Assembly: GCA_963796685.1 (NCBI GenBank)
Contig: CAWCMR010000001.1
Span: 93,053 to 157,052 of the forward strand
Length of the DNA stretch: 64,000 nt
Direction of reading: 5' to 3'
Origin: an uncultured delta proteobacterium
Lineage (GTDB): Bacteria; Myxococcota_A; Polyangia; Fen-1088
Under the pieces are notes generated by a model. The model worked only from the letters and a program-made list of their open reading frames with translations. It made no database searches and was not told where the DNA came from. Shown here piece after piece: positions 4,452 to 64,000 of the stretch (positions are counted from its first letter, which is position 1; each line of letters opens with the position of its first letter). Position numbers and translations under genes: made by a program.

Positions 4452-5381
4452 CTACCCCCCCGCGTGAACAATCAACGGAAAAGAGAACTGCGATTCCCCG
4501 CTTACGTATGGGAAGTGCCAGTGTCGGACTACGTTCTTGATGCAGGAAGAAACCGATTCAAGGGCCACCGGAGCTTCAACGAAAACCGCCCGTACAGTAC
4601 CTGAGGCGGCGATGGTTGCAGTGACGTTCAGTCTTCCATTGGGCAAGAAGCCACCGCGCCTCTGCACACGATCGTAGCAAGCTCGCAGAGCCGCCGCGTT
4701 GTCTCTATCCTTGACGACCGACATCAGGTCGGGCCCTCCAGGTGCGCTCGCTTTGGCCACCGTCGTTTCTGTGAAAGAGGATGCCACCCCCGCGGGGCGC
4801 TTTTCTCCTCCCACGCTGGCGCCGGGTGGCGCCGCGCGTCGTGCGTCGTCCGCGAAGGGGGCGGGCTCCAGGGACAGAGGAGTGTCCTGCCTGGATAGCA
4901 GAACGGTTCGCGGTTCGATCTGGGCCGGCTTCGCCGGCGAGAGCGTCGCGATGCTCTCCACATTTTCTCTTGCGATTTGCTTGCCGGAGCTCCTTCCAGC
5001 GGTCCTTTGCTGCAGTTGCAAGACAATGGCCTCCAACTCGTTGACGAGCCGGGGCAAAGGAACGCTGGTTGCGCCGGATCGGGAACTGGCTTGCAGGAAC
5101 GCGCTGCAAGCGTGCAGAGCCAGCTCGGGCCTGTTTGCAAGCCGGTAGGCTCGGGCCAGCAGATAGTAGAGCACGAGGGGATCCTGATCCACGGCCAAAG
5201 CGGCTTGGAAATCCGCTATCGCTTCATCGTAATGGCCGAGATCGAGCGCGATGATGCCGCTGGTGCGCAAGGTGTTGGAACGGTGCTGCTCGCGGGCACC
5301 CGACAAACGCCCCGGAAGGCTCACGATGGCGACGCATATAGTCGCGATACTGATAATGCGAAGAAGCCTTCTTCCAGCCAT
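4452..5381 (-). CDS. TPR plus AgmX/PglI (TonB-C-like) C-terminal domain protein
   Basis: N-terminal hydrophobic segment; TPR LGHYDEAIADFQAAL; C-terminal ALRACYDR...GRLNVTATIAASGTV...SCIKNVVRHWHFP. Confidence 0.7.
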   Translation of the reverse strand: MAGRRLLRIISIATICVAIVSLPGRLSGAREQHRSNTLRTSGIIALDLGHYDEAIADFQAALAVDQDPLVLYYLLARAYRLANRPELALHACSAFLQASSRSGATSVPLPRLVNELEAIVLQLQQRTAGRSSGKQIARENVESIATLSPAKPAQIEPRTVLLSRQDTPLSLEPAPFADDARRAAPPGASVGGEKRPAGVASSFTETTVAKASAPGGPDLMSVVKDRDNAAALRACYDRVQRRGGFLPNGRLNVTATIAASGTVRAVFVEAPVALESVSSCIKNVVRHWHFPYVSGESQFSFPLIVHAGG

Positions 5382-5512
5382 GGAATCACCGCACTCTCCT
5401 CGCGCTGCCCAGGCCGAGCAAGCGAGATGGCGACCGTTAGCACAACTGTCTCAATTCCGTTGCACGAGTGTCAGAGCAACCGCCGTGCTGACGACCCATC
5501 GCGTCCTTTGTT

Positions 5513-41712: not shown

Positions 41713-43036
41713 GGCTCCTCGCTATTTGGAATGGATTGAATTGGGAAATGCACAGGGAAGTCTGAAGTCCAGTTTTGACAGCAGCAGATAAATCACAGTC
41801 TTCATTTTGCGCGCGGAGCGAAAGCCACGCGCCCGCGCCTTGGCCGCCTGGATGAGGCTGTTGAGTCCTTCCAAGAGACCATTCGTCAGGCCTGACATGA
41901 ACCATCTCATCACGCCTGCCTGGTGCGCCTTGAGGGTCTTGGCGGCCCTGATGACGGGTTCCAATCGGCTATGGGTGGCCCAGAAATACCAGCGCTGAAA
42001 CCACGCCTCCGCTTCATCCGCACTCAGGCTATACAACTCCTGTAGCATGAGCTTGATGTGGTAGGCCCGCGCAGTGGCCAATTTGGAGGAGCGCAAGACC
42101 GCGAAGTGCTCCCTGTTCTCGGATTTGATGTTGGCCTCGTTCCTCAGCCAGTCGTGGCGCGTGCCCTTCAACTCCGGAGAGGACTTCTGCTCCTGCCTTC
42201 GCACCTCATCGATTGCGTCGTTCATGAGTTGGATGACATGGAACCTGTCGAAGGTTAGGTGCGCCGCCGGAAACGTCTCCAAGATGCCCTTGATGAATGC
42301 CTGCGACATGTCGAGACTGAAGTCCGTCACCTTCTTCACGTCTCCACCGTGAGCGAGCAGATCGTCCTTGAAACAAGCCACCGTGCCGTGATTTTTCCCC
42401 TCCGTGACGAACAAGACTTTCGCCGCAACCATGTCGGCAAAGACCGTGACATAGACGTGGTTCTTCTGCCGCGAAGTCTCGTCGACGCCAACCTCGGCGA
42501 CCTGGCTGTAGTCGGCTCGCTCACGGGCCTCGTCCACGTAGTGTTCCAGGATGCGCCACAGGAGCGTGTCATGCTCGCCGACGATGCGACCGACCGCCGC
42601 CACCGTGAGGCCGTTGCGTGCCAGTTCCACCACCATCGCCTCGAAGAGAAGGGTGAAGTTCGACCCGCCACGAGCCCATGGCACATCGACCGTCAAGACG
42701 CCGTGCTTGTCACACTTGGTTCGAGGTTGTCTTGCCTCGACATAGGTGAGGTACTGGAAGAAGTTCAGGTGTCGCCATGTCTGCGGCGAGGCATCGTGTA
42801 CCTTGCAAGCATCGCCACACGTAGGGCAAGGGAAGGTGCTCCCCGGCTTGAAGTCGACTTTGATGTCGAGGCGCTTCTTCTCGGCGTCAAGGTTCAGCTC
42901 TACGACCTCCCATGGATTGACCATGCCGAGAGCCACTGTAAAAAGCGCATTGACGTCAAGACCAGAACTTGGATTTTGCACCACGGAAGATTAGCGGAAC
43001 AACCAACCTCGCGTCCATTTTAGACAGCGAGGAGCC
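41713..43036 (-). mobile_element. Complete ISL3-family insertion sequence (1324 bp)
   Basis: Imperfect 23-bp IRs GGCTCCTCGCTATTTGGAATGGA / GGCTCCTCGCTGTCTAAAATGGA; 8-bp target duplication ATAATCCC at 41705-41712 and 43037-43044. Confidence 0.95.
41722..42984 (-). CDS. ISL3 family transposase
   Basis: CPTCG zinc finger, VPWAR, GVDET, DMS, FDRFHV and NGLLEGLNS motifs. Confidence 0.95.
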   Translation of the reverse strand: MVQNPSSGLDVNALFTVALGMVNPWEVVELNLDAEKKRLDIKVDFKPGSTFPCPTCGDACKVHDASPQTWRHLNFFQYLTYVEARQPRTKCDKHGVLTVDVPWARGGSNFTLLFEAMVVELARNGLTVAAVGRIVGEHDTLLWRILEHYVDEARERADYSQVAEVGVDETSRQKNHVYVTVFADMVAAKVLFVTEGKNHGTVACFKDDLLAHGGDVKKVTDFSLDMSQAFIKGILETFPAAHLTFDRFHVIQLMNDAIDEVRRQEQKSSPELKGTRHDWLRNEANIKSENREHFAVLRSSKLATARAYHIKLMLQELYSLSADEAEAWFQRWYFWATHSRLEPVIRAAKTLKAHQAGVMRWFMSGLTNGLLEGLNSLIQAAKARARGFRSARKMKTVIYLLLSKLDFRLPCAFPNSIHSK

Positions 43037-48336: not shown

Positions 48337-48755
48337 GGCAGACCATACTACGATCTGATCGGAGTTTGGTCGAGACGGTATCTCGGCCAAACTTCGACAT
48401 GATCGACGTTTGGTCAGGTCGTGCCCGGCAACGCCTCCCCGCCGATAGCCACGAACGACAAGCTCGGCTGCAAGGACCTGGATTCCGGGACTGCTCACAG
48501 GCACTCGGCGCTGTTGGCACGCATTTGTCACAACTGCAGGGAACCCGGTGGAACGAGAGGTGACGCGCTGGACAGAGAGGGGAGTCGCGTCGAGCCTCGG
48601 ACCAAAATCCTGAGGAAACTCGGCGGAGCCGGCTCGAATTCGAGTAGGAAAGGCATCCTTCTCGACGGCACCCTGGAACACTCCCGCATCATTCGGCGGT
48701 TGACCACCGGATGTACATGGTCATTATGATCATAACGATCGCCATTGAGGACCCC

Positions 48756-49058
48756 ATGATCACCGAAACCAACGCTGTAACCTTTCGCCAAAACCTTGGC
48801 GAGATGATCAACCAGGTGCAGTTTCGCCGGGACACCATCGTCATCAAAAAGGACGGCAAGGCGGTGGCGGCACTTGTCGATGCCCGGCTGTTCGAACGTA
48901 TCCGCCAGATGCGAGAACGCTTTGATAGCCTGGCCGGGCGGCTTGCCCATGCCTACACGAATGTGCCTGAACAGGAGGGATTGGCGGAGATCGATCGCGT
49001 CGTTGCTAAGGTCCGAGGCGAGGCGCCTTCCAAGCCTGCCCGCTCAAAGAAGGGCTGA
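48756..49058 (+). CDS. Phd/YefM family antitoxin
   Basis: FRQNLGEMINQV...IVIKKDGKAVAALV. Confidence 0.85.
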   Translation: MITETNAVTFRQNLGEMINQVQFRRDTIVIKKDGKAVAALVDARLFERIRQMRERFDSLAGRLAHAYTNVPEQEGLAEIDRVVAKVRGEAPSKPARSKKG

Positions 49059-49061
49059 CCC

Positions 49062-49478
49062 CTGCCAAGCCTGCGCATCGTTCTGGACACCAATGTTTTG
49101 GTGTCAGGTTTGGCGTACCCTGGCAGCATTCCTGGTCGCATCGTCGGGGCGTGGCGGCAGGGGGCCCTTGAGGTAGTCCTGTCGCGCTACATTCTCGACG
49201 AGCTTTCGCACGTGCTCCCGCGTCTCAACCATCGGCTGAATTGGCAGCCTGCCGACCTTTCCGACCTGATAGACATACTGGCCCTGGAGGGAGAACTGGT
49301 CGAGCCACTGGCCCCGGGCAAGAAGCTCCCTCGGGACGTGAAGGATGTGCCCGTACTCGGTACACTGCTTGCCGCAAAAGCCGACTACCTGGTTACAGGC
49401 GACAAGGATCTGCTTGTCCTTGCCGCGCGCTACCCCATCGTTACCCCCGCCGATTTCTGGCAACGCCACGGCGGTTGA
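49062..49478 (+). CDS. PIN-domain toxin (no canonical start codon)
   Basis: RIVLDTNVLVS, RDVKD and LVTGDKDLL motifs. Only CTG codons (49062, 49071) precede the DTN motif. Confidence 0.8.
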   Translation: MPSLRIVLDTNVLVSGLAYPGSIPGRIVGAWRQGALEVVLSRYILDELSHVLPRLNHRLNWQPADLSDLIDILALEGELVEPLAPGKKLPRDVKDVPVLGTLLAAKADYLVTGDKDLLVLAARYPIVTPADFWQRHGG

Positions 49479-49760: not shown

Positions 49761-49920
49761 ATGCCCGTGGCCGACCACCACGTGGTTCGCGTGCAGGCCG
49801 CCGACGGCCGGGTGCTGGAGCTGAGCCCTGGACACCCCACCGCCGGCGGCCGCACGTTCGGCGACCTACGACCTGGCACCCGGCTCGATGGCGCCGCCAT
49901 CGTATCGGTCGACCTTGCCG
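49761..49920 (+). pseudogene. Hint-domain fragment
   Basis: HHVVRVQAADGRVLELSPGHPTAGGRTFGDLRPG resembles the Hint B-block (T/SxxH) region; both ends are missing. Confidence 0.5.
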
Positions 49921-50036
49921 CGACTCGGGAGGAAGCACGGGCACGGATTTCTGAGAGGCACTATTCCTTCGCGCCGTGCTCCGTGCCGTTCGTGCTCGGG
50001 GCCATGACGGCACACATGTTGCTAAATAGGTCGACC

Positions 50037-51083
50037 ATGAAATCCTCACGGCGCACTCTGCCCGTTGTGGCTCTGACGGTCAGCGGTTTTGCCATCTTCA
50101 CCCTCGCGTGTGGGTCGAAGTCGGGGCTTGGAGGCAGCGGAGGCCAGCCGGGGACAGGCGGCGCTGCCGGCGCGGGACAAGGCGGCAGCCCAGCGCAGGG
50201 TGGTGTTTCCGGAACTGGTGGCGCGGCAACCGGCGGCACGCTCGGGACGGGCGGCAGTACGGCCAAGGGTGGCGCATCCGGCGCGGGCGGCATTGTGGGG
50301 GCCGGCGGTGGCCCGGGCACGGGCGGTGCCGCAGCGGACGCTGGCCTCGCGTGCACCGACGACGCCGGGGCCGCCTTGCCCGGCGCTGCCCGTCGCTGTG
50401 CCCAGGACTCGGACTGTACCGTGGCGGTCGCCCAGCGATGCTGCGGGCCCGATCAAGCCATCGGCGAGGCAACATCACAGTCCGGCACCTACGCGGCCTG
50501 CCTCGCGCTGCCGCCCGGTGCGTGCCAGGGCCTCGGTTGCGCCAAGTTTCTCGGCTACTCGACGGACACCGGCAAGACGACCCCGGTGGAAGGCTCGTCG
50601 GCTAACCCGCTCGATTGGGTGACCGTGCACTGCCTGAATCAGATTTGCACCACCGACGTGCTCGCCACCCAGGATGGCGGCCGAGATGCTCAGACAGCCG
50701 ACGCGCCGGTCGATTCCGGTGTCACGCCCCCCGGCGATGGCGGCAGCTCGGTCTGCGGCAGCGGCGTTTGCACCGCGACCCAACTTTGCATTCGTCCCTC
50801 CTGCGCCGGTGGAACTGCCCCGCCTTGCGTAGCCGTCGGCGATGCCGGCTCGTGCCCCACGGGCTACACTTTCTCGTCATTGTGCCAATACGCGACCGGC
50901 GGAGGTACGGGGCCAGGGTGCGTGCCACCAGCCTGTGTGAACCCTCCACCGTTCTGCCTCGACACCCCCACAGCTTGCAGCACCAAGTTGACCTGCGGAT
51001 GTCTGCCTTCCAATGTCTGCGGAACCGGCGGTGGTAGTTGCATGATGATCAGCTCGTCCGTCGTGCAATGTGGCGCGGCGTGA
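50037..51083 (+). CDS. Gly-rich/Cys-rich lipoprotein
   Basis: Lipobox TLAC; GTGG repeats; two Cys-rich domains. Confidence 0.75.
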   Translation: MKSSRRTLPVVALTVSGFAIFTLACGSKSGLGGSGGQPGTGGAAGAGQGGSPAQGGVSGTGGAATGGTLGTGGSTAKGGASGAGGIVGAGGGPGTGGAAADAGLACTDDAGAALPGAARRCAQDSDCTVAVAQRCCGPDQAIGEATSQSGTYAACLALPPGACQGLGCAKFLGYSTDTGKTTPVEGSSANPLDWVTVHCLNQICTTDVLATQDGGRDAQTADAPVDSGVTPPGDGGSSVCGSGVCTATQLCIRPSCAGGTAPPCVAVGDAGSCPTGYTFSSLCQYATGGGTGPGCVPPACVNPPPFCLDTPTACSTKLTCGCLPSNVCGTGGGSCMMISSSVVQCGAA

Positions 51084-51147: not shown

Positions 51148-52506
51148 ATGCCCGAGACGATCAAGCGGCTGCGCGGGATCATCCTGACACTCACCGAGCG
51201 CTGCAATCTACGTTGCGACTATTGCTACGTGCCGGTCGAGCAAGGGCGGACCATGACCCCGGAAGTGGCGGCTCGCGCAGTCGATTGGTTCGCGGCCAAC
51301 GCGGCCGAAGACGGCGCGCTGGGGCTTTCCTTCTTCGGCGGCGAGCCGTTCTTGGCCGCCGAGCAAATGCGTCGAGTGACCGGACACCTGCGGGACCGCG
51401 TGCCTGCCCACCGGCGCGTGCGCGTGGTGACGCCGACCAATGCCCTCGCCATGTCTGAAGCAGACGTCGCCTGGTGCCGACAGCAGGACGTCGAGCTGGC
51501 CATCGGCATCGACGGCGGCGCTGATTCGTGTGGACGCAAGCGCGCGGACGGCAGCGAGTGCACGAATGCCCTTGCGCGGGCCGTGCCCGAGATCCTGCGC
51601 AAGCTGCCGCCGGGATCCGCCCTGGCACGCATGACCGTGACACCGGTCAACGTGGGGTCGCTGTGCGCGAACATCCGCGCGCTTGGACGCATGGGCTTCG
51701 AGCGGATCGTCTACCTGCCGGACTACGATGCTCGCTGGGACGAAGCCGCGCTTGCGTCGTGGCGGCGCGAGCACCAGCGGCTCGCCACCTGGATGATCGG
51801 CGCTCGCTCGGTCGGCAAATCCGTGCCCGAGCTGCCGGCCTGGAAGGCGATCGAAGCGCGCCTCGTGCGCAGGGTGCCCCGTCGTCGCTGCGGCGCCGGC
51901 ATCGACCAGGTCACGGTCGCCCCCGACGGAGAAGTGTTCCCGTGCTATCGCTTCACCTACGCGCAGGATGCCCAGGTCTGGCGACTCGGCGACGTGCGCG
52001 ACGGCATCTTGGATTCGGAAAAGGTCGCGCGGCTCGAACAGGCCGACGTCGCTCGGCTGCGTCCCGAGCGCCGTGCGTGCGCATCCTGCACGGCTGCCGA
52101 TGGCTGTACCCATCACTGCCCGGCCGTGGGATTCCTCGTCACCGGAGATGTGGACCGGGTACCCGACATCGTCTGCCGTCTGATGGAGGCGCAGGTCGCG
52201 GCCGTGCGCGAGCTGTGCGCGGCCTTCCAGGGTACGGCCCGGTCCAAGCCGGTGGCCCGACCGTGGGCAAGGGCGGCGGCCGTGGCTGCCGCGGTCGCGG
52301 GCATGGCAGCGTGCGAAAGCAACAGTCCGGCCAAGCCACGGCCCGACGCCAGTGATGCCAAGCAGGTCCAGGACCTTGGTGTGGGGAAACCGGACGCCGC
52401 GCCTCCCGTCGATGCCACGGGCGTCGACAGCGAGGCCATCGATGGCGGCCAAGTGATCGATTGGGATGCCTACACCTATGTCGGCGGGGTGTGCATGCTC
52501 CCCTGA
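51148..52506 (+). CDS. Radical SAM/SPASM protein with fused lipobox-containing C-terminal tail
   Basis: CNLRCDYC, FFGGEP, CGAG...GEVFPC and CASC...GCTHHC...C (SPASM); tail AAAVAGMAAC...YVGGVCMLP. Confidence 0.9.
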   Translation: MPETIKRLRGIILTLTERCNLRCDYCYVPVEQGRTMTPEVAARAVDWFAANAAEDGALGLSFFGGEPFLAAEQMRRVTGHLRDRVPAHRRVRVVTPTNALAMSEADVAWCRQQDVELAIGIDGGADSCGRKRADGSECTNALARAVPEILRKLPPGSALARMTVTPVNVGSLCANIRALGRMGFERIVYLPDYDARWDEAALASWRREHQRLATWMIGARSVGKSVPELPAWKAIEARLVRRVPRRRCGAGIDQVTVAPDGEVFPCYRFTYAQDAQVWRLGDVRDGILDSEKVARLEQADVARLRPERRACASCTAADGCTHHCPAVGFLVTGDVDRVPDIVCRLMEAQVAAVRELCAAFQGTARSKPVARPWARAAAVAAAVAGMAACESNSPAKPRPDASDAKQVQDLGVGKPDAAPPVDATGVDSEAIDGGQVIDWDAYTYVGGVCMLP

Positions 52507-52542: not shown

Positions 52543-53151
52543 ATGTCCGAGAGCACCAAGAACACGACCCGAGAAATTGTCCTAACCGTCACGCCCACCA
52601 ATGTCGCCACGTTGTGCGCGGATATCCGAGCGCTGGCGCGGGAGGGTGCTCCGTGCATCGACTACGTGGCTGATCCCGACGCGGCTTGGGACGAGACGGC
52701 CGTCGAGCTGTGGCAGCGAGAGCACGAGCGGCTCGCCACTTGGATGGTCGGCGCGCGCTCGGCCGGGCAAAGATTGCCCGAGCTGCCGGCGTGGCAGGCC
52801 ATCGAAGCTCAGCGGCAAGGGGCGAGCCCAATCAGCCGACCGGCGCGGGTGCTGCCCACCGCCAACCCATTGGTCAAGGCGGCCATGCTCGCCGCCGCGG
52901 TCGCGGGCATGGCCGCGTGTCAGTCCAATGGACCCATGAACGTGAAGACGGATGCCGGCCAGGACACCAACCAGACGCGCGACGTGGGGATAGGAGGCGG
53001 CATCTGCGCTATCCAAATCGACCGCGATGCCTTGGCGCCCACTGATTTGCTGCCGGCCACGGACAACGCCTCCGGCGGTGGCTCGGCGATCGACGGCGAC
53101 CAGGCCGACACCGCGGACGCCTATGTGGAGCCTATCGGCGGCATCTGCTAA
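52543..53151 (+). CDS. Truncated paralog of the radical SAM protein, candidate precursor/substrate with two GGIC motifs
   Basis: GGAGG RBS; residues ~14-89 align to rSAM residues ~162-237; same AAAVAGMAAC segment; no CxxxCxxC and no SPASM. Confidence 0.75.
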   Translation: MSESTKNTTREIVLTVTPTNVATLCADIRALAREGAPCIDYVADPDAAWDETAVELWQREHERLATWMVGARSAGQRLPELPAWQAIEAQRQGASPISRPARVLPTANPLVKAAMLAAAVAGMAACQSNGPMNVKTDAGQDTNQTRDVGIGGGICAIQIDRDALAPTDLLPATDNASGGGSAIDGDQADTADAYVEPIGGIC

Positions 53152-53153
53152 GC

Positions 53154-53909
53154 CTACCGTCGGCGCGCGACCCAGACCTGACGAACCGACTTGCTCCATT
53201 CGAGCGGCTCGTTGCGTAGGCCACCGTAGGCTTGGTCGATGTCGAATCCACAGTTGCGCAGGAGCGCGGCCAGCTCGTGAGGCGGGTACATGCGCACCGA
53301 GGTCTCTGGCAGATCGACGCGCGTGCCGTCCGCACGAAACAGGGTGCGCCGAGAGATGGCGCGACCGGAGAGGGCGTCATACTCGGTGGCTTCGAGCTTC
53401 GTTCCGTGGCGGTCTTCGCGCCAGGTGCGCTGCGGCCAGCCGCGCATGAGCGCCAGGGGATTCGACACGTCGAGCATGAAGGCACCGCCCGGCCGCAAGA
53501 CCTCGCGCACCTGCTCCAGCACCACGCGGTTTTCGTCGTCGGAGAAGAAGCCGAACGCGGTGTAGAGACAGATGCAGGCGTCGAACGGTCCGAGGCCGCG
53601 CAGGTCGCGCATATCCCGTCGCTGCCAGTCGATTGCCGCTTGCGCAGCCTGCTCCGAAGCGGCCAGCTCGTGTGCCAGCTTGAGCATCGGCTCGGACAAA
53701 TCCAACCCGGTCAGGCGGTACCCGTGTCGGGCGAGAGCAATGGCGTGGCGACCGAAGCCGCAGCCCAGGTCGAGCACGCGGGCCTCGGACGCCAGCGCGA
53801 GGGCGCGATCCACGAACCTCGCGTCCTCCTCGGCCAGGGCCGGATCGAGCAGGCCCCGGTAGAACTCCAGGTACCGCCCGTCGAACAGCTCGGCAAACCA
53901 TTCGGCCAT
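53154..53909 (-). CDS. Class I SAM-dependent methyltransferase
   Basis: VLDLGCGFGRH, GLDLSEPML, DMR and LRPGG motifs. Confidence 0.9.
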   Translation of the reverse strand: MAEWFAELFDGRYLEFYRGLLDPALAEEDARFVDRALALASEARVLDLGCGFGRHAIALARHGYRLTGLDLSEPMLKLAHELAASEQAAQAAIDWQRRDMRDLRGLGPFDACICLYTAFGFFSDDENRVVLEQVREVLRPGGAFMLDVSNPLALMRGWPQRTWREDRHGTKLEATEYDALSGRAISRRTLFRADGTRVDLPETSVRMYPPHELAALLRNCGFDIDQAYGGLRNEPLEWSKSVRQVWVARRR

Positions 53910-53910
53910 G

Positions 53911-54543
53911 TCAGGGACGCCCGCAGTAAATCGTTTGACCGGTACGGATGCAGCCTGCGCCGCTGCCGGGACCGCCGCACAAGCAGGTGCAGGGATCTCC
54001 CGACGAGCACGAGGCCGGCAAGGACTGGCAGGATGTCCAGGAGTTGATCTCCAGGCAGCCGCCGTCGAGGCTGGGCGCCATGCCACAGCCTTCCTGCGTG
54101 CCGGGCGGACAGACGCCCCCGTCGAGATGTGAAAGGCAGCGTGGAGCCGGACCACCGCTGGCGGTGAAGCAAAACTGATCGCTTGGGCAGCTTGCGTCTC
54201 CGCACCGGAAGCTCGCATCCGCTGGTGCGCTATCGATGATCGCGTTGGCAACATCCGAGGCGGCATCTTGCGAGCCCAGGTCGCACGGTGCGCAGATGCC
54301 AGCATTGGGGGGCAGGCACATGCCACAGCAGGGCGTGGTGTTGGGAGGACAACCGGCGTCCGGGGCGGCATCGGCAGCCGCGTCGGTCACGTCGACCCCG
54401 CTCGCCATGTCCGCGACCTCGTCGGCCACGGAGTCGGTGCTCCCCTTTCGATCGACCGCACCGTCCTTTGCGGTGGAGCGCAGGGCGGCGCCCCCGCAGC
54501 CGGAGAGGACAGCGACGACGAATAGCATTCGGGCGAACGTCAT
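53911..54543 (-). CDS. Cys-rich lipoprotein
   Basis: Lipobox LSGC; Asp/Ala linkers; Cys-rich C-terminal domain. Confidence 0.7.
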   Translation of the reverse strand: MTFARMLFVVAVLSGCGGAALRSTAKDGAVDRKGSTDSVADEVADMASGVDVTDAAADAAPDAGCPPNTTPCCGMCLPPNAGICAPCDLGSQDAASDVANAIIDSAPADASFRCGDASCPSDQFCFTASGGPAPRCLSHLDGGVCPPGTQEGCGMAPSLDGGCLEINSWTSCQSLPASCSSGDPCTCLCGGPGSGAGCIRTGQTIYCGRP

Positions 54544-54583
54544 GGTCGAGAGGATTCTGCAAGCATGAGGCCAACGTCGCAAC

Positions 54584-55420
54584 TCAGCCGGGCTCGGCGC
54601 ACAGAAGGCCCGAGGTGGCGGAGTAGCTCCCGCACTGAGCGGATGGGGAGACCGTCTTGCACAGCGTTCCGGCGCAAGAACACGATGGCGTTGCAGAGCC
54701 ACAGGGATTCGGTACGCAGCCGCATTGCTGCAGGCCTAGGGCGGGACTGACGAGCTTGAGTAGCAGCTCGCTGGCGCTGCATTGTGGAAGGGGCGTGCAA
54801 GTCGTGAGGGTCGAGCCATCGATGCCACCGTCGGTGCCGCTTGCCCCGCCAGTGGCCAGCCCCCCCGAGCCGCCGGTCGACGATCCGCCGGAGCCCCCCG
54901 TCGCCATACCGCCGGTGCCACCCGTCCCGTTTCCGCCCGAACCTCCTGCCGCGGCGTCGCTGCTGCCGCCCGCGCCGCCGGTCGACGTGCCACCGCTGCC
55001 GCCCGATTCCGTGCCTCCACCGCCGCTCGCACCTCCGGTCTTCACGCCGCCTGCGCCGCCCAACGCTGCGTCGCTGCTTTCTTGTCCGGCCCCGCCCCCG
55101 GTGGCCCGGCCGCCTGCACCCGCTCCCGCCAATCCGCCGGCTCCGGCGCCTCCGGTGACGGTCACCAAGCCACCCGTGCCTCCGACCGTGCCCGCGCCGC
55201 CTGTCCCTGTCAGCACACCGCCGGACCCGCCCTTGCCCGCAGAGCTGCCCCCTAGACCACTGGCACTGCCTCCCGAACCGACGCCACCGGAGCCTGTCTT
55301 GGTGCCGGTCCCGCTGCTCGAGCATGAATTCTGAGATGAAACGGCGAGCAGGAGGATGAGAAGGGAGGCCACAGGTATCTTTGGGCCCAGACCGAACGAG
55401 GGAAGACTTCGCCTTTCCAT
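54584..55420 (-). CDS. Gly-rich protein with C-terminal Cys-rich domain (probable lipoprotein)
   Basis: Hydrophobic signal then Cys; long GG-x repeats; CGCVPNPC..SCSC. Confidence 0.65.
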   Translation of the reverse strand: MERRSLPSFGLGPKIPVASLLILLLAVSSQNSCSSSGTGTKTGSGGVGSGGSASGLGGSSAGKGGSGGVLTGTGGAGTVGGTGGLVTVTGGAGAGGLAGAGAGGRATGGGAGQESSDAALGGAGGVKTGGASGGGGTESGGSGGTSTGGAGGSSDAAAGGSGGNGTGGTGGMATGGSGGSSTGGSGGLATGGASGTDGGIDGSTLTTCTPLPQCSASELLLKLVSPALGLQQCGCVPNPCGSATPSCSCAGTLCKTVSPSAQCGSYSATSGLLCAEPG

Positions 55421-59378: not shown

Positions 59379-60598
59379 TCAAGCCTTCTGTTCTTTTTCA
59401 AGCTGCTTGAGCGTTGCCGGACCCAGCAGATCCTCTTCCTCTATCTTGTGCTGGGCCCGGAAGCGCTTCAGGGCCGCGCGGGTGCGTGGCCCGAGCTCGC
59501 CTTCCTCGTCGCCGCAGTGGAAGCCCAGGTTCTCGAGCCGCGCCTGGACGCCGGACAAGTCTTCGATTGGGTCCAGGTGGCCCATGCCCAGGTCGAGAAT
59601 CAGGCAGTCGGTTTTGCCTTTGGAGTCCTTGGGCCAAACGATTAGGCGCAGCTCCGTCGCTGTTAGCGGGAGCTTTTCATCCAGCAACCCGTCTCCGCCG
59701 GTTGTGCCCTTGCGGCGGTGGATCTTTCGACCGTCACGGAAAGTCAGTTCATAGCGGGCGTTGGCTGCTGGTTCATCGACGTCCAATTCGATGGTCAGAT
59801 GAAGCCGCTGGGTGGGGCGCTTTGCCGTGATCTTGGTTTCCTGGTCTGCCGCCAGCTTGAACACCGCTGCCTTGTGGGGCGGGATGGCGACCTTGTCCCC
59901 GGGCCTGAGGACGTCAGGGTTCGGCCGCGCCTTGGCCAGCTCTCGATTGTCGGAGTGGTGCCATACGGTGCCAACGTCGGAGAAACCGTACTTCCACGCA
60001 ATTCGCGCTGCCGTCTCCCCCTGGCGCACGACGTGGACGCGAGCTTCGCCATGTTCGTCGCCAGCCTTGGCACCTTCGAAGGAAGCGGCGTCGAAGTCGA
60101 CGAAGGTCAGCTCCACTTGGCCCTTTGACAACCCGCGCAGCTCGACCGTGCCGCCAGGCGGGGTCCTACCCTCTGCGATGCGGCCGTCGGGCAGCTTGGC
60201 CGCATACTTGACCCACGCCACTGGAAGCCCTTCCTTGTCCTTGACCACAAACCTCACCCAGGACTTCTTGTCCTTCCTGCCCTTCGACATGTCCTTGGTG
60301 GCCGTCTGGGGCGCCATCGCGGGCACGCTCATGGCGCCCATGAGGGGCGCCGGTGGCGTGTTGGGCGGCATCTTCGCCCCTGGCATGTGATTGGCGGTCC
60401 ACAGGTCGAGAACGCGCAGCGCGGGCGAGCTCTCGATGAACACGTCGAACGAGCCCATGACCGGGTAGGCCGCGCCCTCGACCGCGTGCGAGAGCACGCC
60501 GCCGCCGGTCGGGCGGGAAACGGCGTTCCCGGTCGACTGCTTGATGTAGGAGTTCATGTTGCCCACCGGGTTGCCTTCGATGGTCACGGTGGACGCTA
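59379..60598 (-). pseudogene. PAAR-like DUF4150-LysM-peptidoglycan-binding protein, 5'-truncated
   Basis: VTIEGNPV...STG...GGGVLS...SFDVFIE (second half of DUF4150); HVVRQGET (LysM); VQARLENLGF...GPRTRAALKRF (PG_binding_1). Confidence 0.75.
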
Positions 60599-60944: not shown

Positions 60945-63900
60945 GTGGCAGACGTATCGAAACGTAGCGTTCTCTCGGTCCTGATCAAGGGACGGTTGGA
61001 AGATCTCGGGCGAAACTTTGGCGTTTCTGTCCCAACCACGGGGACAAAGGATGCCCAGGTGGCCGTCCTGGCGGATTCGCCACTGGACTTGCCGAGCATC
61101 CTTGGGCGGCTAAGGCGGGATGAGTTGCGGTCGGCCTGTCGTGCGCACGGGCTGGATGCCACGGGGCGTGGACGCGGCGACCTGATGGCGCGATTGGCCG
61201 GACCGGGACTGGCCACGGGAGCGCGCGAAGGTGAGCCAGCGTGGCAGCGCTTGCACCAGGCTGACGGCCTGCCGCGCGAGGGCCAGATCGTGCAAGTCCG
61301 GCACCGGCAGTATTTGGTCACCGGGGTCACCACACCAGAGCTCGGCGAAGACAGGTCAGGACAAACCCTGGTCAGCCTGGTCTGTCTCGACGACGATGCA
61401 GCCGGGCGGCGGCTCGAAGTCCTGTGGGAGCGGGAGCTGGGCGCGCGAGTATTCACGCCCGAGGAACGTGGGCTTGGCGACCGGCTCGATCCGCCACGCC
61501 AGTTCGCCGCCTACCTGCATGCCTTGAAGTGGGGCTGCGTGACCGCCACGGATGCGCGGCTTTTTCAGGCGCCGTTTCGCGCGGGGGTGAAGGTTCTCGA
61601 CCACCAGATGGTACCGCTTCGTAAGGCGCTGGAATTGCCGCGCGTGAATCTCTTCCTGGCCGACGACGTCGGCTTGGGCAAGACCATCGAGGCGGGGCTC
61701 ATCTTGCAGGAGCTGATTCTGCGTCAGCGCGTGGATCAGGCGTTGATCATCTGCCCGGCAGCCTTGGCCTTGCAGTGGCGAGCCGAGATGGAGAAGCGGT
61801 TCGGCATCCGTTTCGAGATCTACAACCGCGACTTCGTGGTGCGCCGCCGCGAGGAGCGCGGCTTCGGCGTGAATCCCTGGACCACTTTTCCACGCTTCAT
61901 CATCTCGTACCAGACCCTGCGCCGGCCCGAGTATCGAGAGCCCCTCCTGCGCCACTTGGATCAGCGCGCGCCCAAGAGCCTGCTCATCATGGACGAGGCG
62001 CACACGGCGGCGCCCGCGTCGGCATCGAAGTACGCGGTCGATTCTAACGTCACCCATGTCGTGCGCGAGGTGGCGCCCAAGTTCGAGCATCGCCTATTCC
62101 TCTCGGCCACCCCGCACAACGGCCACTCGAACAGTTTCTCGTCGCTCCTGGAAATCCTCGATCCGCAGCGATTCACTCGCGGCGTGCCTGTCTCCGGTCC
62201 CAAGCAACTCGAACCGGTGATGGTCCGGCGCCTGAAGGGCGAGTTGCGCGAGCTGGGCATCGAGGGCTATCCGTTGCGGCGGGTGATTCAGATAGACCTC
62301 ACGCACGGGCCGGGTGGCTGGCAGCAACGCCACATTGTCGACGGCCGCGGGACAGCGCCGGGTGCGGTCGGAGAGGGCTCCGACGCCGAGATCGAGCTTT
62401 CCGCTCTCCTAGCCCAGTATTCATCCCTGCTAAAACAGAAGAACCGCCGCAGCAGGTTGGTGATCGCCAATCTGCAAAAGCGGTTGCTCTCCAGCATCGA
62501 GGCTTTCGCCCGCACCCTGGCCGTTCACGCCAAGAGCGTTGGCACCCGCGCGGACAAGGCAACCGCGACCGGCCCTACGCCAGACGACAGCGAATACGGT
62601 GAGGACGAGGCGACCTCGGACGAGCGCTTCGACGCGCAGATGTTCATGTTCTCCGGCGCCCTCGCGGCCCCTAGCACCGACGCGCGCGCCTTGCTGGAAC
62701 GCATGACCGGCCTGGCGGAACAGAACCGCCGCGCGCCCGGCCCCAAGGTGCTGGCCCTGCTCGACTGGATTCGCCGCAACCAGTGTCCGGCAGTCCAGCT
62801 TGGTGGAGCGGCTCGCGCTCGCGTGCCAGCGCCGTGGACCGACCGGCGGGTCATCGTCTTCACCGAGTATGCGGACACCAAACGCTATCTCGCCACCATC
62901 CTGCGCGCTGCTTTCGACGGCACGGCCGACGGCGATCTGCGCCTGATGGAATTCCACGGCGGCATGTCCGACCGCCAGCGCGAAGAGGTCCAGCGCGCGT
63001 TCAACGGGCCGCCGGAGCAGTATCCCGTGCGAATCCTGCTCGCCACCGACGCAGCTCGCGAGGGCGTGAACCTGCAGGGTTACTGCGCGGACATCTTCCA
63101 CTTCGATGTGCCTTGGAACCCCGCCCGGCTTGAACAGCGCAACGGCCGCGTGGATCGAACCCTGCAACGGGAGAAGGAAGTTCGCTGCCACTACTTCGTC
63201 TACCCGCAGCGAGCTGAGGACCACGTGCTGCAAGTCCTGATCGAAAAGGTCGAGCGCATCCGCCGCGACCTGGGCACCCTGGGCGAGGTCGTCGCCGAAC
63301 GCCTGGCCGAGGTGCTGGAAGAGGGCATCGGCCCCAACACGGAAGCCCGCCTGGACGAGGCCGAGCGCATCGACAATCTGAAGACCAGCGCAACCCGCGA
63401 CCTTGAATCCGTACACGCCGTCCAGAAGGCCCGCGAGGACATCGACCTCGTGGCCAACATCCTGAACGACTCGCGCAAGGTCATGGACTACGAGCCCGGT
63501 CTCCTTCGCGAGGCCATCGACGTGGGTCTCGGCCTCGGCGGCGGGGCCTCGCTCATTCCCACCGCGACGCCGCACACCTTCAACCTGCCCGAGCTCGGCG
63601 ACACCTGGCAAACCACCTTGGACGCCTTCCGCCCGCCGCGCGAGCGTGACGAGAGCTTCGATGAATGGCGCAAGCACCCGCTGCGGCCGGTGACCTTCGT
63701 TTCGCCCGAGCACCTGACCGATGAGGTCGTGCAACTTCACCTGCAACATCCCTTCGTCCAGCGCGTGCTGTCGCGTTTCCGCGCGCAGGGTTGGGCGGCG
63801 CACGACCTCGGCCGCGTGACCGTTCTGCGCAACCAGAGGGACTCCCTCGTTCGCGTCATCGGCATTGGCCGACTATCGCTGTTCGGCCCGGGCGCCACCA

Positions 63901-64000
63901 GGCTGCACGAAGAAATGATCCTGGTCGCCGCCCACTGGCTCGACAATCGGGCCGACGGCCGCCTCAAACCGTTCGCCGAGGAGGCCGACCGGGCGATTCA
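60945..64000 (+). CDS. drmD: SNF2-like helicase of DISARM DrmD type (runs off window end)
   Basis: Not in the ORF track; translated by hand. VCLDDDA...LEVLWE, LPRVNLFLADDVGLGKTIEAG, DEAH, LSATPHNG, AREGVNLQ and PWNPARLEQRNGRVDR. Confidence 0.85.
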   Translation, partial: MADVSKRSVLSVLIKGRLEDLGRNFGVSVPTTGTKDAQVAVLADSPLDLPSILGRLRRDELRSACRAHGLDATGRGRGDLMARLAGPGLATGAREGEPAWQRLHQADGLPREGQIVQVRHRQYLVTGVTTPELGEDRSGQTLVSLVCLDDDAAGRRLEVLWERELGARVFTPEERGLGDRLDPPRQFAAYLHALKWGCVTATDARLFQAPFRAGVKVLDHQMVPLRKALELPRVNLFLADDVGLGKTIEAGLILQELILRQRVDQALIICPAALALQWRAEMEKRFGIRFEIYNRDFVVRRREERGFGVNPWTTFPRFIISYQTLRRPEYREPLLRHLDQRAPKSLLIMDEAHTAAPASASKYAVDSNVTHVVREVAPKFEHRLFLSATPHNGHSNSFSSLLEILDPQRFTRGVPVSGPKQLEPVMVRRLKGELRELGIEGYPLRRVIQIDLTHGPGGWQQRHIVDGRGTAPGAVGEGSDAEIELSALLAQYSSLLKQKNRRSRLVIANLQKRLLSSIEAFARTLAVHAKSVGTRADKATATGPTPDDSEYGEDEATSDERFDAQMFMFSGALAAPSTDARALLERMTGLAEQNRRAPGPKVLALLDWIRRNQCPAVQLGGAARARVPAPWTDRRVIVFTEYADTKRYLATILRAAFDGTADGDLRLMEFHGGMSDRQREEVQRAFNGPPEQYPVRILLATDAAREGVNLQGYCADIFHFDVPWNPARLEQRNGRVDRTLQREKEVRCHYFVYPQRAEDHVLQVLIEKVERIRRDLGTLGEVVAERLAEVLEEGIGPNTEARLDEAERIDNLKTSATRDLESVHAVQKAREDIDLVANILNDSRKVMDYEPGLLREAIDVGLGLGGGASLIPTATPHTFNLPELGDTWQTTLDAFRPPRERDESFDEWRKHPLRPVTFVSPEHLTDEVVQLHLQHPFVQRVLSRFRAQGWAAHDLGRVTVLRNQRDSLVRVIGIGRLSLFGPGATRLHEEMILVAAHWLDNRADGRLKPFAEEADRAI

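Follow-up and report, generated by a model that had tools for sequence, protein, structure and literature searches.

A radical SAM/SPASM enzyme conserved as a fusion to a putative internal lipoprotein signal and a cysteine-motif tail in Polyangia-type myxobacteria

Peptide maturases of the radical S-adenosylmethionine (SAM)/SPASM type are normally thought to need a separate precursor that bears a leader, usually an RRE (the recognition element of RiPPs, peptides that are made by the ribosome and modified after translation), a dedicated protease and an exporter. The substrate patterns of the maturases of the PapB/CteB type are CX3D/E and SCIFF. Another enzyme of this kind, QhpD, is a cytoplasmic radical SAM/SPASM protein that makes cysteine thioethers in QhpC, a polypeptide that works outside the cytoplasm. 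Here we describe a gene of an uncultured delta proteobacterium (GTDB lineage Myxococcota_A; Polyangia; Fen-1088) in which a radical SAM/SPASM enzyme runs, in a single open reading frame (ORF), into an internal lipoprotein-type signal and then into an acidic tail with a cysteine motif. The gene (51148..52506, + strand, 452 amino acids, aa) lies in a stretch of 64,000 nucleotides (nt) of the assembly GCA_963796685.1 (contig CAWCMR010000001.1, positions 93,053 to 157,052), and this whole stretch is called the window throughout. The reading that we favor, with a probability of roughly 55%, is that the enzyme modifies its own fused tail, probably by forming a thioether, and that the internal signal would then drive export of the tail, its lipidation and its cleavage by LspA. 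This rests on sequence comparison and structure prediction.

The closest described systems are each similar to the fusion protein in some respects and different in others. CteB (5wgg and 5why in the PDB) and the ranthipeptide maturases of the PapB family share with it the radical SAM core and a SPASM domain with seven cysteines. Their substrates are cysteine peptides that become crosslinked by thioethers, and these come as a separate peptide of leader and core, whereas here the putative core is fused to the enzyme. CteB begins with an RRE and the fusion enzyme has none. The tail motif is G-G-[IVL]-C-[PA]-V-x-x-D or, at the C-terminus, G-G-x-C, and is unlike the CX3D/E and SCIFF patterns. In the quinohemoprotein amine dehydrogenase system the substrate of QhpD is a separate subunit that is not a lipoprotein, whereas the fusion protein carries its own tail; no quinohemoprotein amine dehydrogenase genes were found at this locus. 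Canonical prolipoproteins have the same charged n-region, Ala-rich h-region and [AGS]-Cys, but their signal is N-terminal, whereas this one stands about 365 residues into the chain, behind a folded iron-sulfur (Fe-S) enzyme.

A core located within the polypeptide of the modifying enzyme is known from the borosins of fungi (OphMA type) and the fused burpitide cyclases of plants (AhyBURP type), alongside split forms (PMC12186524 and the split-borosin preprint). These eukaryotic enzymes, an N-methyltransferase and a copper BURP cyclase respectively, belong to families unrelated to the fusion enzyme; no export signal separates them from their core, and release depends on other proteases. The bufferins and oxazolins are cysteine peptides with Sec signal peptides that are modified in the cytoplasm by MNIO enzymes and exported by the general pathway, and about 16% of the Buf2 precursors are predicted lipoproteins (PMC12452194). 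In these systems the MNIO acts with a DUF2063 partner, the precursor is a separate peptide that bears its signal at the N-terminus, and the enzyme is unfused. A literature search that covered subscription journals thinly gave no description of a fusion between a radical SAM enzyme and either its substrate or a lipoprotein signal, which agrees with the preliminary description of this locus, made from the DNA letters alone, whose author did not recognize the architecture among the described RiPP classes.

The fusion gene begins with an ATG that has an AGGAGG Shine-Dalgarno site 5 nt ahead of it. All its parts, on the + strand, follow one another without interruption. The radical SAM [4Fe-4S] ligands appear as CxxxCxxC (C19, C23, C26; 51202..51225) and are followed by the SPASM domain (residues 248-343; 51889..52176), whose seven invariant cysteines are patterned as in CteB. 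Then comes the signal-peptide-like segment (residues 366-388; 52243..52311), composed of a SKPVARPWAR n-region and an Ala-rich h-region, and the lipobox cysteine Cys389 (TGC, 52312..52314) in the context MAA-C. The rest is an acidic, disordered linker (residues 390-438; 52315..52461) and the terminal motif WDAYTYVGGVC(449)MLP (52462..52503), in which the codon of Cys449 is TGC (52492-52494). The terminus of the 452-aa ORF reads ...VARPWARAAAVAAAVAGMAAC(389)ESNSP...IDWDAYTYVGGVC(449)MLP, and the stop-free run goes from the enzyme into SKPVARPWARAAAVAAAVAGMAA-C389, through the acidic stretch and to the end of the terminal motif. The complete radical SAM and SPASM domains, the internal lipobox-like Cys389, the acidic linker and the YVGGVCMLP end had all been pointed out in the preliminary description, and the ORF reading together with Pfam and NCBIfam places them where it had put them. 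Directly downstream is a second gene, orf2 (202 aa; 52543..53151, + strand), described below.

In order to establish how far this architecture is conserved, 5.8 billion clustered proteins were searched, which gave 61 matches, 58 of them strong (P0001-P0058, 38-94% identity). With the window protein and six orthologues derived from genomes, the strong matches make up a pool of 65 family members. In 60 of these, what follows the SPASM domain is an n-region whose net charge is +3 to +7 in most cases, then an uncharged run rich in Ala, then [AGS]-Cys, so that in 60/65 homologues the putative core peptide is joined covalently to the enzyme in one ORF, as in the enzyme-fused RiPPs. The uncharged run ahead of the lipobox cysteine measures 13-22 residues (median 17). 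In an alignment of 44 sequences, C389 and the ten Fe-S cysteines are invariant. A self-written, PROSITE-like lipobox pattern matched after the SPASM motif in 58 of the 65 proteins and nowhere in their enzyme parts. The internal segment has, by these comparisons, every sequence feature of a bacterial lipoprotein signal peptide (positive n-region, uncharged run, [AGS]-Cys) other than the N-terminal position, since the h-region begins near residue 372 of 452. Both Lgt and LspA, moreover, are encoded in the source genome. What had been described as an internally placed signal peptide II followed by a tail with GG[VI]C is therefore a plan shared by nearly all the homologues.

The four members of the pool without a tail are P0019, which looks frameshifted, P0048 and P0049, which end inside the h-region, and P0056, which ends after the SPASM domain; P0050 is atypical. 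Farther away, the tail is missing from 10 out of 10 radical SAM/SPASM proteins of about 30% identity in the same class (among the matches listed, and counted in + strand frames), and it marks one clade of these proteins. The four tail-less homologues and the nature of the genome, which is metagenome-derived, 88.6% complete and 6.5% contaminated, are what could be said for a fusion by chance, the loss of a stop codon or an artefact of assembly. Against this, the same fusion is found in 60/65 homologues from many independent assemblies and down to 38% identity, and the tail itself shows a ratio of nonsynonymous to synonymous substitution rates (dN/dS) of 0.29 between the window and locus L122 (one sequence pair). 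The fusion is conserved and is neither the product of a lost stop codon nor of chance; conservation already refutes that explanation, to which we give practically no weight.

The n-region raises the question of the export route. It contains a twin Arg (RR) in 32 of the 60 members with a signal (e.g., P0024-P0029, P0040 and P0052), the window protein not included. The fuller RR-x-hydrophobic-hydrophobic pattern is present in only 10 of the 60 n-regions, and again the window is not among them. It is conceivable, judging from these residues, that in part of the family the modified tail uses Tat instead of Sec.

A different way to obtain a lipoprotein from this gene would be to translate the tail separately. 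An in-frame GTG at 52252 (Val369), 20 codons ahead of Cys389, had been noted in the preliminary description as a possible start, and the tail would then be an ordinary small prolipoprotein nested in the enzyme gene, with the read-through fusion incidental. The codon is indeed there, and 19 of 30 loci have an in-frame ATG, GTG or TTG at -32 to -13 from the lipobox cysteine. However, a control range gave 20/30, such a codon is missing altogether from the -32 to -13 range in 11 of the 30 loci, and a start with a Shine-Dalgarno-like site ahead of the signal was seen in only five. No Shine-Dalgarno site was found for GTG 52252, as opposed to the AGGAGG of the fusion gene and the GGAGG of orf2. Since internal starts are not enriched and this one lacks a Shine-Dalgarno site, separate translation is not a conserved mechanism. 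Neither were free-standing tail genes apparent. A word-based search of proteins shorter than 111 aa gave a single match, a 76-aa fragment, and phmmer with the signal and tail of orf2 against 1.84 billion representatives retrieved six proteins (family members, orf2 forms, a deletion form of the type of genome G095, see below, or fragments) with no free-standing canonical lipoprotein among them. With tails this short and low in complexity, the sensitivity of both searches is limited. The absence of any stop codon between enzyme and tail in 60/65 homologues points in the same direction, and we regard the nested gene as very improbable.

As to the enzyme, residues 9-336 resemble radical SAM/SPASM peptide maturases. 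The protein belongs to the radical SAM superfamily (PF04055, 38.1 bits against a cut-off of 29.5, with C19, C23 and C26 invariant) and has a genuine SPASM domain (TIGR04085, 42.7 bits against 27; PF13186, 27.9 bits against 21.5). Its seven SPASM cysteines (C248, C266, C311, C314, C320, C324 and C343) are invariant in the 44-sequence alignment, and all of them align with those of CteB (5wgg). At the level of NCBIfam equivalogs, the top match is the PapB ranthipeptide maturase NF047865, with 165.3 bits and therefore under the cut-off of 340. The SCIFF maturase family of CteB, TIGR03974, gave 104.4 bits against 425, with no RRE and an alignment that begins only at profile position 96. QhpD (TIGR03906) was the fourth-best match (93.6 bits, cut-off 453), and the anaerobic sulfatase maturase TIGR03942 reached 46.2 bits against 349. 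The sole strong sequence match in the PDB was CteB 5wgg (E 3.7e-24), residues 9-351 aligning to CteB 97-443. That the match begins only at residue 97 of CteB means that the N-terminal RRE of CteB (about 96 residues) is absent here. Foldseek with the AlphaFold2 (AF2) model, in which residues 1-365 are confident (predicted local distance difference test, pLDDT, mostly 85-98 by block), placed CteB first (E 3.2e-23, template modeling scores of 0.67/0.72), then anSME (E 1.7e-16) and ChlB. In the ESM Atlas the nearest cluster is one of Myxococcota radical SAM proteins with 71 members. From these comparisons, a CteB/PapB-like radical SAM/SPASM peptide maturase without RRE is the best explanation of the fusion enzyme, and a thioether chemistry can be inferred from its nearest relatives. 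Having no RRE, the window protein is unlikely to be found in the set of about 15,000 RRE-associated radical SAM enzymes of PMC10288494.

The tails were compared in a set of 75, namely 60 fusion proteins and 15 proteins of the orf2 type. They are acidic (17% acidic and 4% basic residues) and each contains, beyond the lipobox cysteine, 1-10 further cysteines. For 248 of these 251 cysteines, position -2 is occupied by G, P or A. Internal cysteines (n=176) follow the motif [G]-[GP]-G-[IVL]-C-[PA]-V-x-x-D, position -2 being G in 174 of them, -1 being I/V/L in 157, +1 being P or A in 159 and +5 being D in 94. At the last cysteine the motif reads [GP]-G-[ILV]-C, the G at -2 being present in 74/75, and in 44 of the 75 tails the last cysteine is the very end of the protein.

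Does the enzyme recognize this motif? The preliminary description had proposed that the enzyme carries its own substrate in cis, with an AlphaFold model as a check on docking. AF2 with the whole chain did not dock the tail, an outcome that we regard as uninformative. In contrast, a two-chain prediction of the core (residues 1-366) and the tail (390-452), with SAM and three 4Fe-4S clusters, gave a complex score of 0.93 (runs 0.94, 0.93 and 0.75), the best of three controls scoring 0.00; in the calibration of this score, 58 of 80 solved complexes attained the mark, as did 2 of 110 mismatched pairs. At least 42% of the contacts were in common between runs and the pLDDT of the partner was at least 40. 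The confidently placed part of the tail is limited to the last 14 residues, W439-P452. Their contacts are with residues 9-12, 57-63 (the SFFGGEP motif), 92-96, 118, 159-161, 188-190, 230-233, 246-248, 254-256, 266-268 and 324, a set that corresponds to the mouth of the barrel. Among the residues touched are C248, C266 and C324, which we take to be the ligands of auxiliary cluster I from the alignment with CteB and the CteB structure. The end of the tail, G-G-x-C, is thus predicted to sit in the active-site cavity. This docking, together with the missing RRE, a motif that resembles a repeat and the fact that no other precursor gene is conserved, makes it probable in our view that the tail is the substrate. 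The cis part of the proposal fares less well than the docking, since the presence of the tail on the catalytically dead orf2 implies action in trans as well.

The gene orf2 has its own GGAGG Shine-Dalgarno site and encodes an enzyme fragment, a signal with lipobox (Cys126) and a tail. The fragment, residues 14-90, matches residues 162-238 of the enzyme with 64% identity and leads directly into AGMAA-C126, after which the tail has a GGGIC and, at its C-terminus, a GGIC. Fe-S ligands and catalytic residues are all missing. The family comprises 15 clusters (44-100% identity, 202-245 aa) with a conserved start and a highly conserved tail. At L122 the gene order is that of the window (fusion gene, orf2, methyltransferase), and the Shine-Dalgarno site and start of orf2 are kept. 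The dN/dS of its enzyme fragment is 0.35, versus 0.12 in the same segment of the main gene (window and L122, one pair), which is moderate evidence that orf2 is under constraint. In its AF2 model only the fragment is folded, into a beta-alpha-beta-alpha unit (residues 10-80, pLDDT 82-90), and the tail is disordered. From sequence, orf2 is a conserved, catalytically dead paralogue that behaves as a real gene. As it has no catalytic residues, any modification of its tail must occur in trans. The piece of barrel that it retains (some 80 residues) might be a recognition or chaperone element. This piece overlaps enzyme positions that are in contact with the tail in the two-chain prediction (159-161, 188-190 and 230-233). 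Besides orf2, there is no second copy of the fusion gene in the source genome.

On the other side of orf2, and convergent with it, is a class I SAM-dependent methyltransferase (53154..53900, - strand; Methyltransf_25, 76.9 bits). It is the only conserved neighbor; no precursor, protease or transporter is conserved near the fusion gene. The methyltransferase adjoins the fusion gene in 20 of the 22 loci with at least 1500 nt past the core, L127 and L140 being the exceptions, and in 23 loci overall the two are side by side, 17 times in convergent orientation and six times on the same strand. Within the class, its orthologues, which stand out as a top tier of their own (E <= 1.8e-62), are found in 9 of 401 genomes, namely all eight with the fusion gene plus G095; in G024 and G062 fusion gene and methyltransferase are on different contigs, near contig ends. 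Its top NCBIfam match, and the described system that it approaches most, is the daptide-type RiPP methyltransferase NF041820, with 79.6 bits, below the cut-off of 175 and thus outside that family. Other matches are peptide or small-molecule N-methyltransferases such as CypM. Second-tier relatives (34-41% identity), which many of the class's genomes encode within longer frames of some 600-1100 aa, represent a different, fused family.

Putting these elements together, we propose the following sequence of events. In the cytoplasm, the active-site cavity would take up the G-G-[IVL]-C motif and the cysteine would be modified, the substrate being the protein's own tail or that of a neighboring molecule, including the enzyme-less orf2. 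The modification would most likely be a thioether crosslink to a nearby residue, because that is what the closest characterized relatives make and because Asp is frequent at +5. The methyltransferase encoded next door could put on a second modification, a methyl group. The internal n-region, h-region and lipobox would then insert into the membrane, the N-terminal side staying cytoplasmic in keeping with the positive n-region, and the tail would be translocated, after which Lgt would lipidate Cys389 and LspA would cut just ahead of it. The expected product is a lipid-anchored, acidic, crosslinked envelope peptide of about 63 aa, with the enzyme left behind as a spent leader. More tentative, and in our opinion somewhat short of an even chance, is the full "enzyme-as-leader" pathway, in which the self-fused core is crosslinked and the translocon, Lgt and LspA serve as exporter and leader protease. 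Such a pathway would yield one fused product per enzyme molecule, plus the trans-modified products of orf2, and what serves orf2 as a leader would be left over from the enzyme itself.

Several points weigh against modification and export of the fused tail. A lipoprotein signal some 365 residues from the N-terminus is in a non-canonical position, and our literature search found no natural precedent for an internal one. A precedent comes from laboratory constructs of the 1980s, in which internalized prolipoprotein signals were still modified and processed. Every NCBIfam equivalog cut-off was missed, so the chemistry cannot be transferred by family membership. In the AF2 model of the whole chain, residues 385-452 are disordered (pLDDT < 50) and undocked. 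The passing score of the complex, which expresses a model's confidence and not a measurement, may owe part of its value to the solved enzyme-peptide complexes of this fold (CteB, anSME and SuiB), and that run used its own alignment and ligands, unlike the calibration, with an uncertain fold of the partner. Genome G095, of the same genus, retains the tail and a methyltransferase (75% identical) and has lost the enzyme. Its relic (L200, G095:C225, ~5040-5500) has enzyme residues 1-23 abutting 337-end out of frame, with signal and tail intact, and no intact enzyme was detected in this 99%-complete genome at E <= 1e-30. Finally, the window tail has no Asp after its cysteine and consequently no obvious downstream acceptor for a crosslink.

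This last point would also suit a radical SAM enzyme that is tethered to the membrane, with the segment serving just as an anchor (a signal-anchor that stays uncleaved, or a lipidated one), the substrate lying elsewhere and the tail having an extracytoplasmic or regulatory role, for example as a pseudo-substrate. The helix that AF2 predicts at residues 372-384, within the signal segment, is compatible with an anchor, and the docking of the motif would also fit an autoinhibitory pseudo-substrate. On the other hand, the uncharged run (median 17 residues) has the length of a signal peptide and without exception leads up to [AGS]-Cys, which would be superfluous in a plain anchor. Nor is there another conserved candidate substrate gene nearby, or an RRE with which to recognize a free precursor, whereas orf2 keeps the tail without the enzyme and the 1-10 copies of the motif are reminiscent of repeated core peptides. 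We consider the tethered enzyme unlikely, clearly less so than the nested gene, and retain the modified and exported tail as the favored reading.

The relatives of the fusion gene bear source names within the Myxococcota: Polyangia, Polyangiaceae, Myxococcales and metagenome-assembled genomes labeled 'Deltaproteobacteria'. Orthologues were detected in 8 of the 401 genomes of its own class, counting the source genome G000 (E <= 5.4e-58), and were absent from the other genomes sampled in the genus (0/10), in the family (0/71) and in the phylum (0/400 at E <= 1e-50). A word-based look for sequencing data listed no RNA data set with this sequence, and the best DNA data set had 0.22 of the words. 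This patchy distribution, together with an ISL3-family transposase in the window (41722-42984, - strand; DDE_Tnp_ISL3, 209.6 bits), suggests an accessory region. Just upstream of the locus is a pair formed by a Phd/YefM antitoxin and a PIN_3 toxin (48711-49058 and 49098-49478, + strand), and an AAA_14/DUF4143 ATPase is also in the neighborhood. Farther downstream are a Tox-PAAR-like protein with a peptidoglycan-binding domain (59379-60587, - strand) and a large SNF2/helicase protein that extends past the window (60945-64000, + strand). Three Gly-rich lipoprotein-like ORFs with Cys-rich C-terminal parts and no Pfam or NCBIfam match flank the fusion gene and its partners (49761-51083, + strand; 53911-54702 and 54584-55420, - strand). 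These flanking lipoproteins were considered as partners and rejected, since tblastn at the other loci recovered only a short N-terminal piece in L121 and L125.

If the favored reading is true, covalent fusion and the general lipoprotein pathway would stand in for precursor, RRE, protease and exporter. The enzyme-as-leader pathway, if true, would be the first bacterial and the first radical SAM case of an enzyme-fused ribosomal peptide, extending to bacteria and to radical chemistry the enzyme-core fusions known from fungal borosins and plant burpitides (in the sources given above), and a natural use of an internal lipoprotein signal. Genome mining that looks for short precursor genes beside the enzyme would miss such fusions. 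The family is also a natural case in which to ask whether a signal located behind a folded Fe-S domain of 40 kDa is open to processing by Lgt and LspA. For the Polyangia-type myxobacteria, the favored reading predicts a new molecule of the envelope, an acidic peptide that is crosslinked, anchored by lipid and partnered by a conserved methyltransferase.

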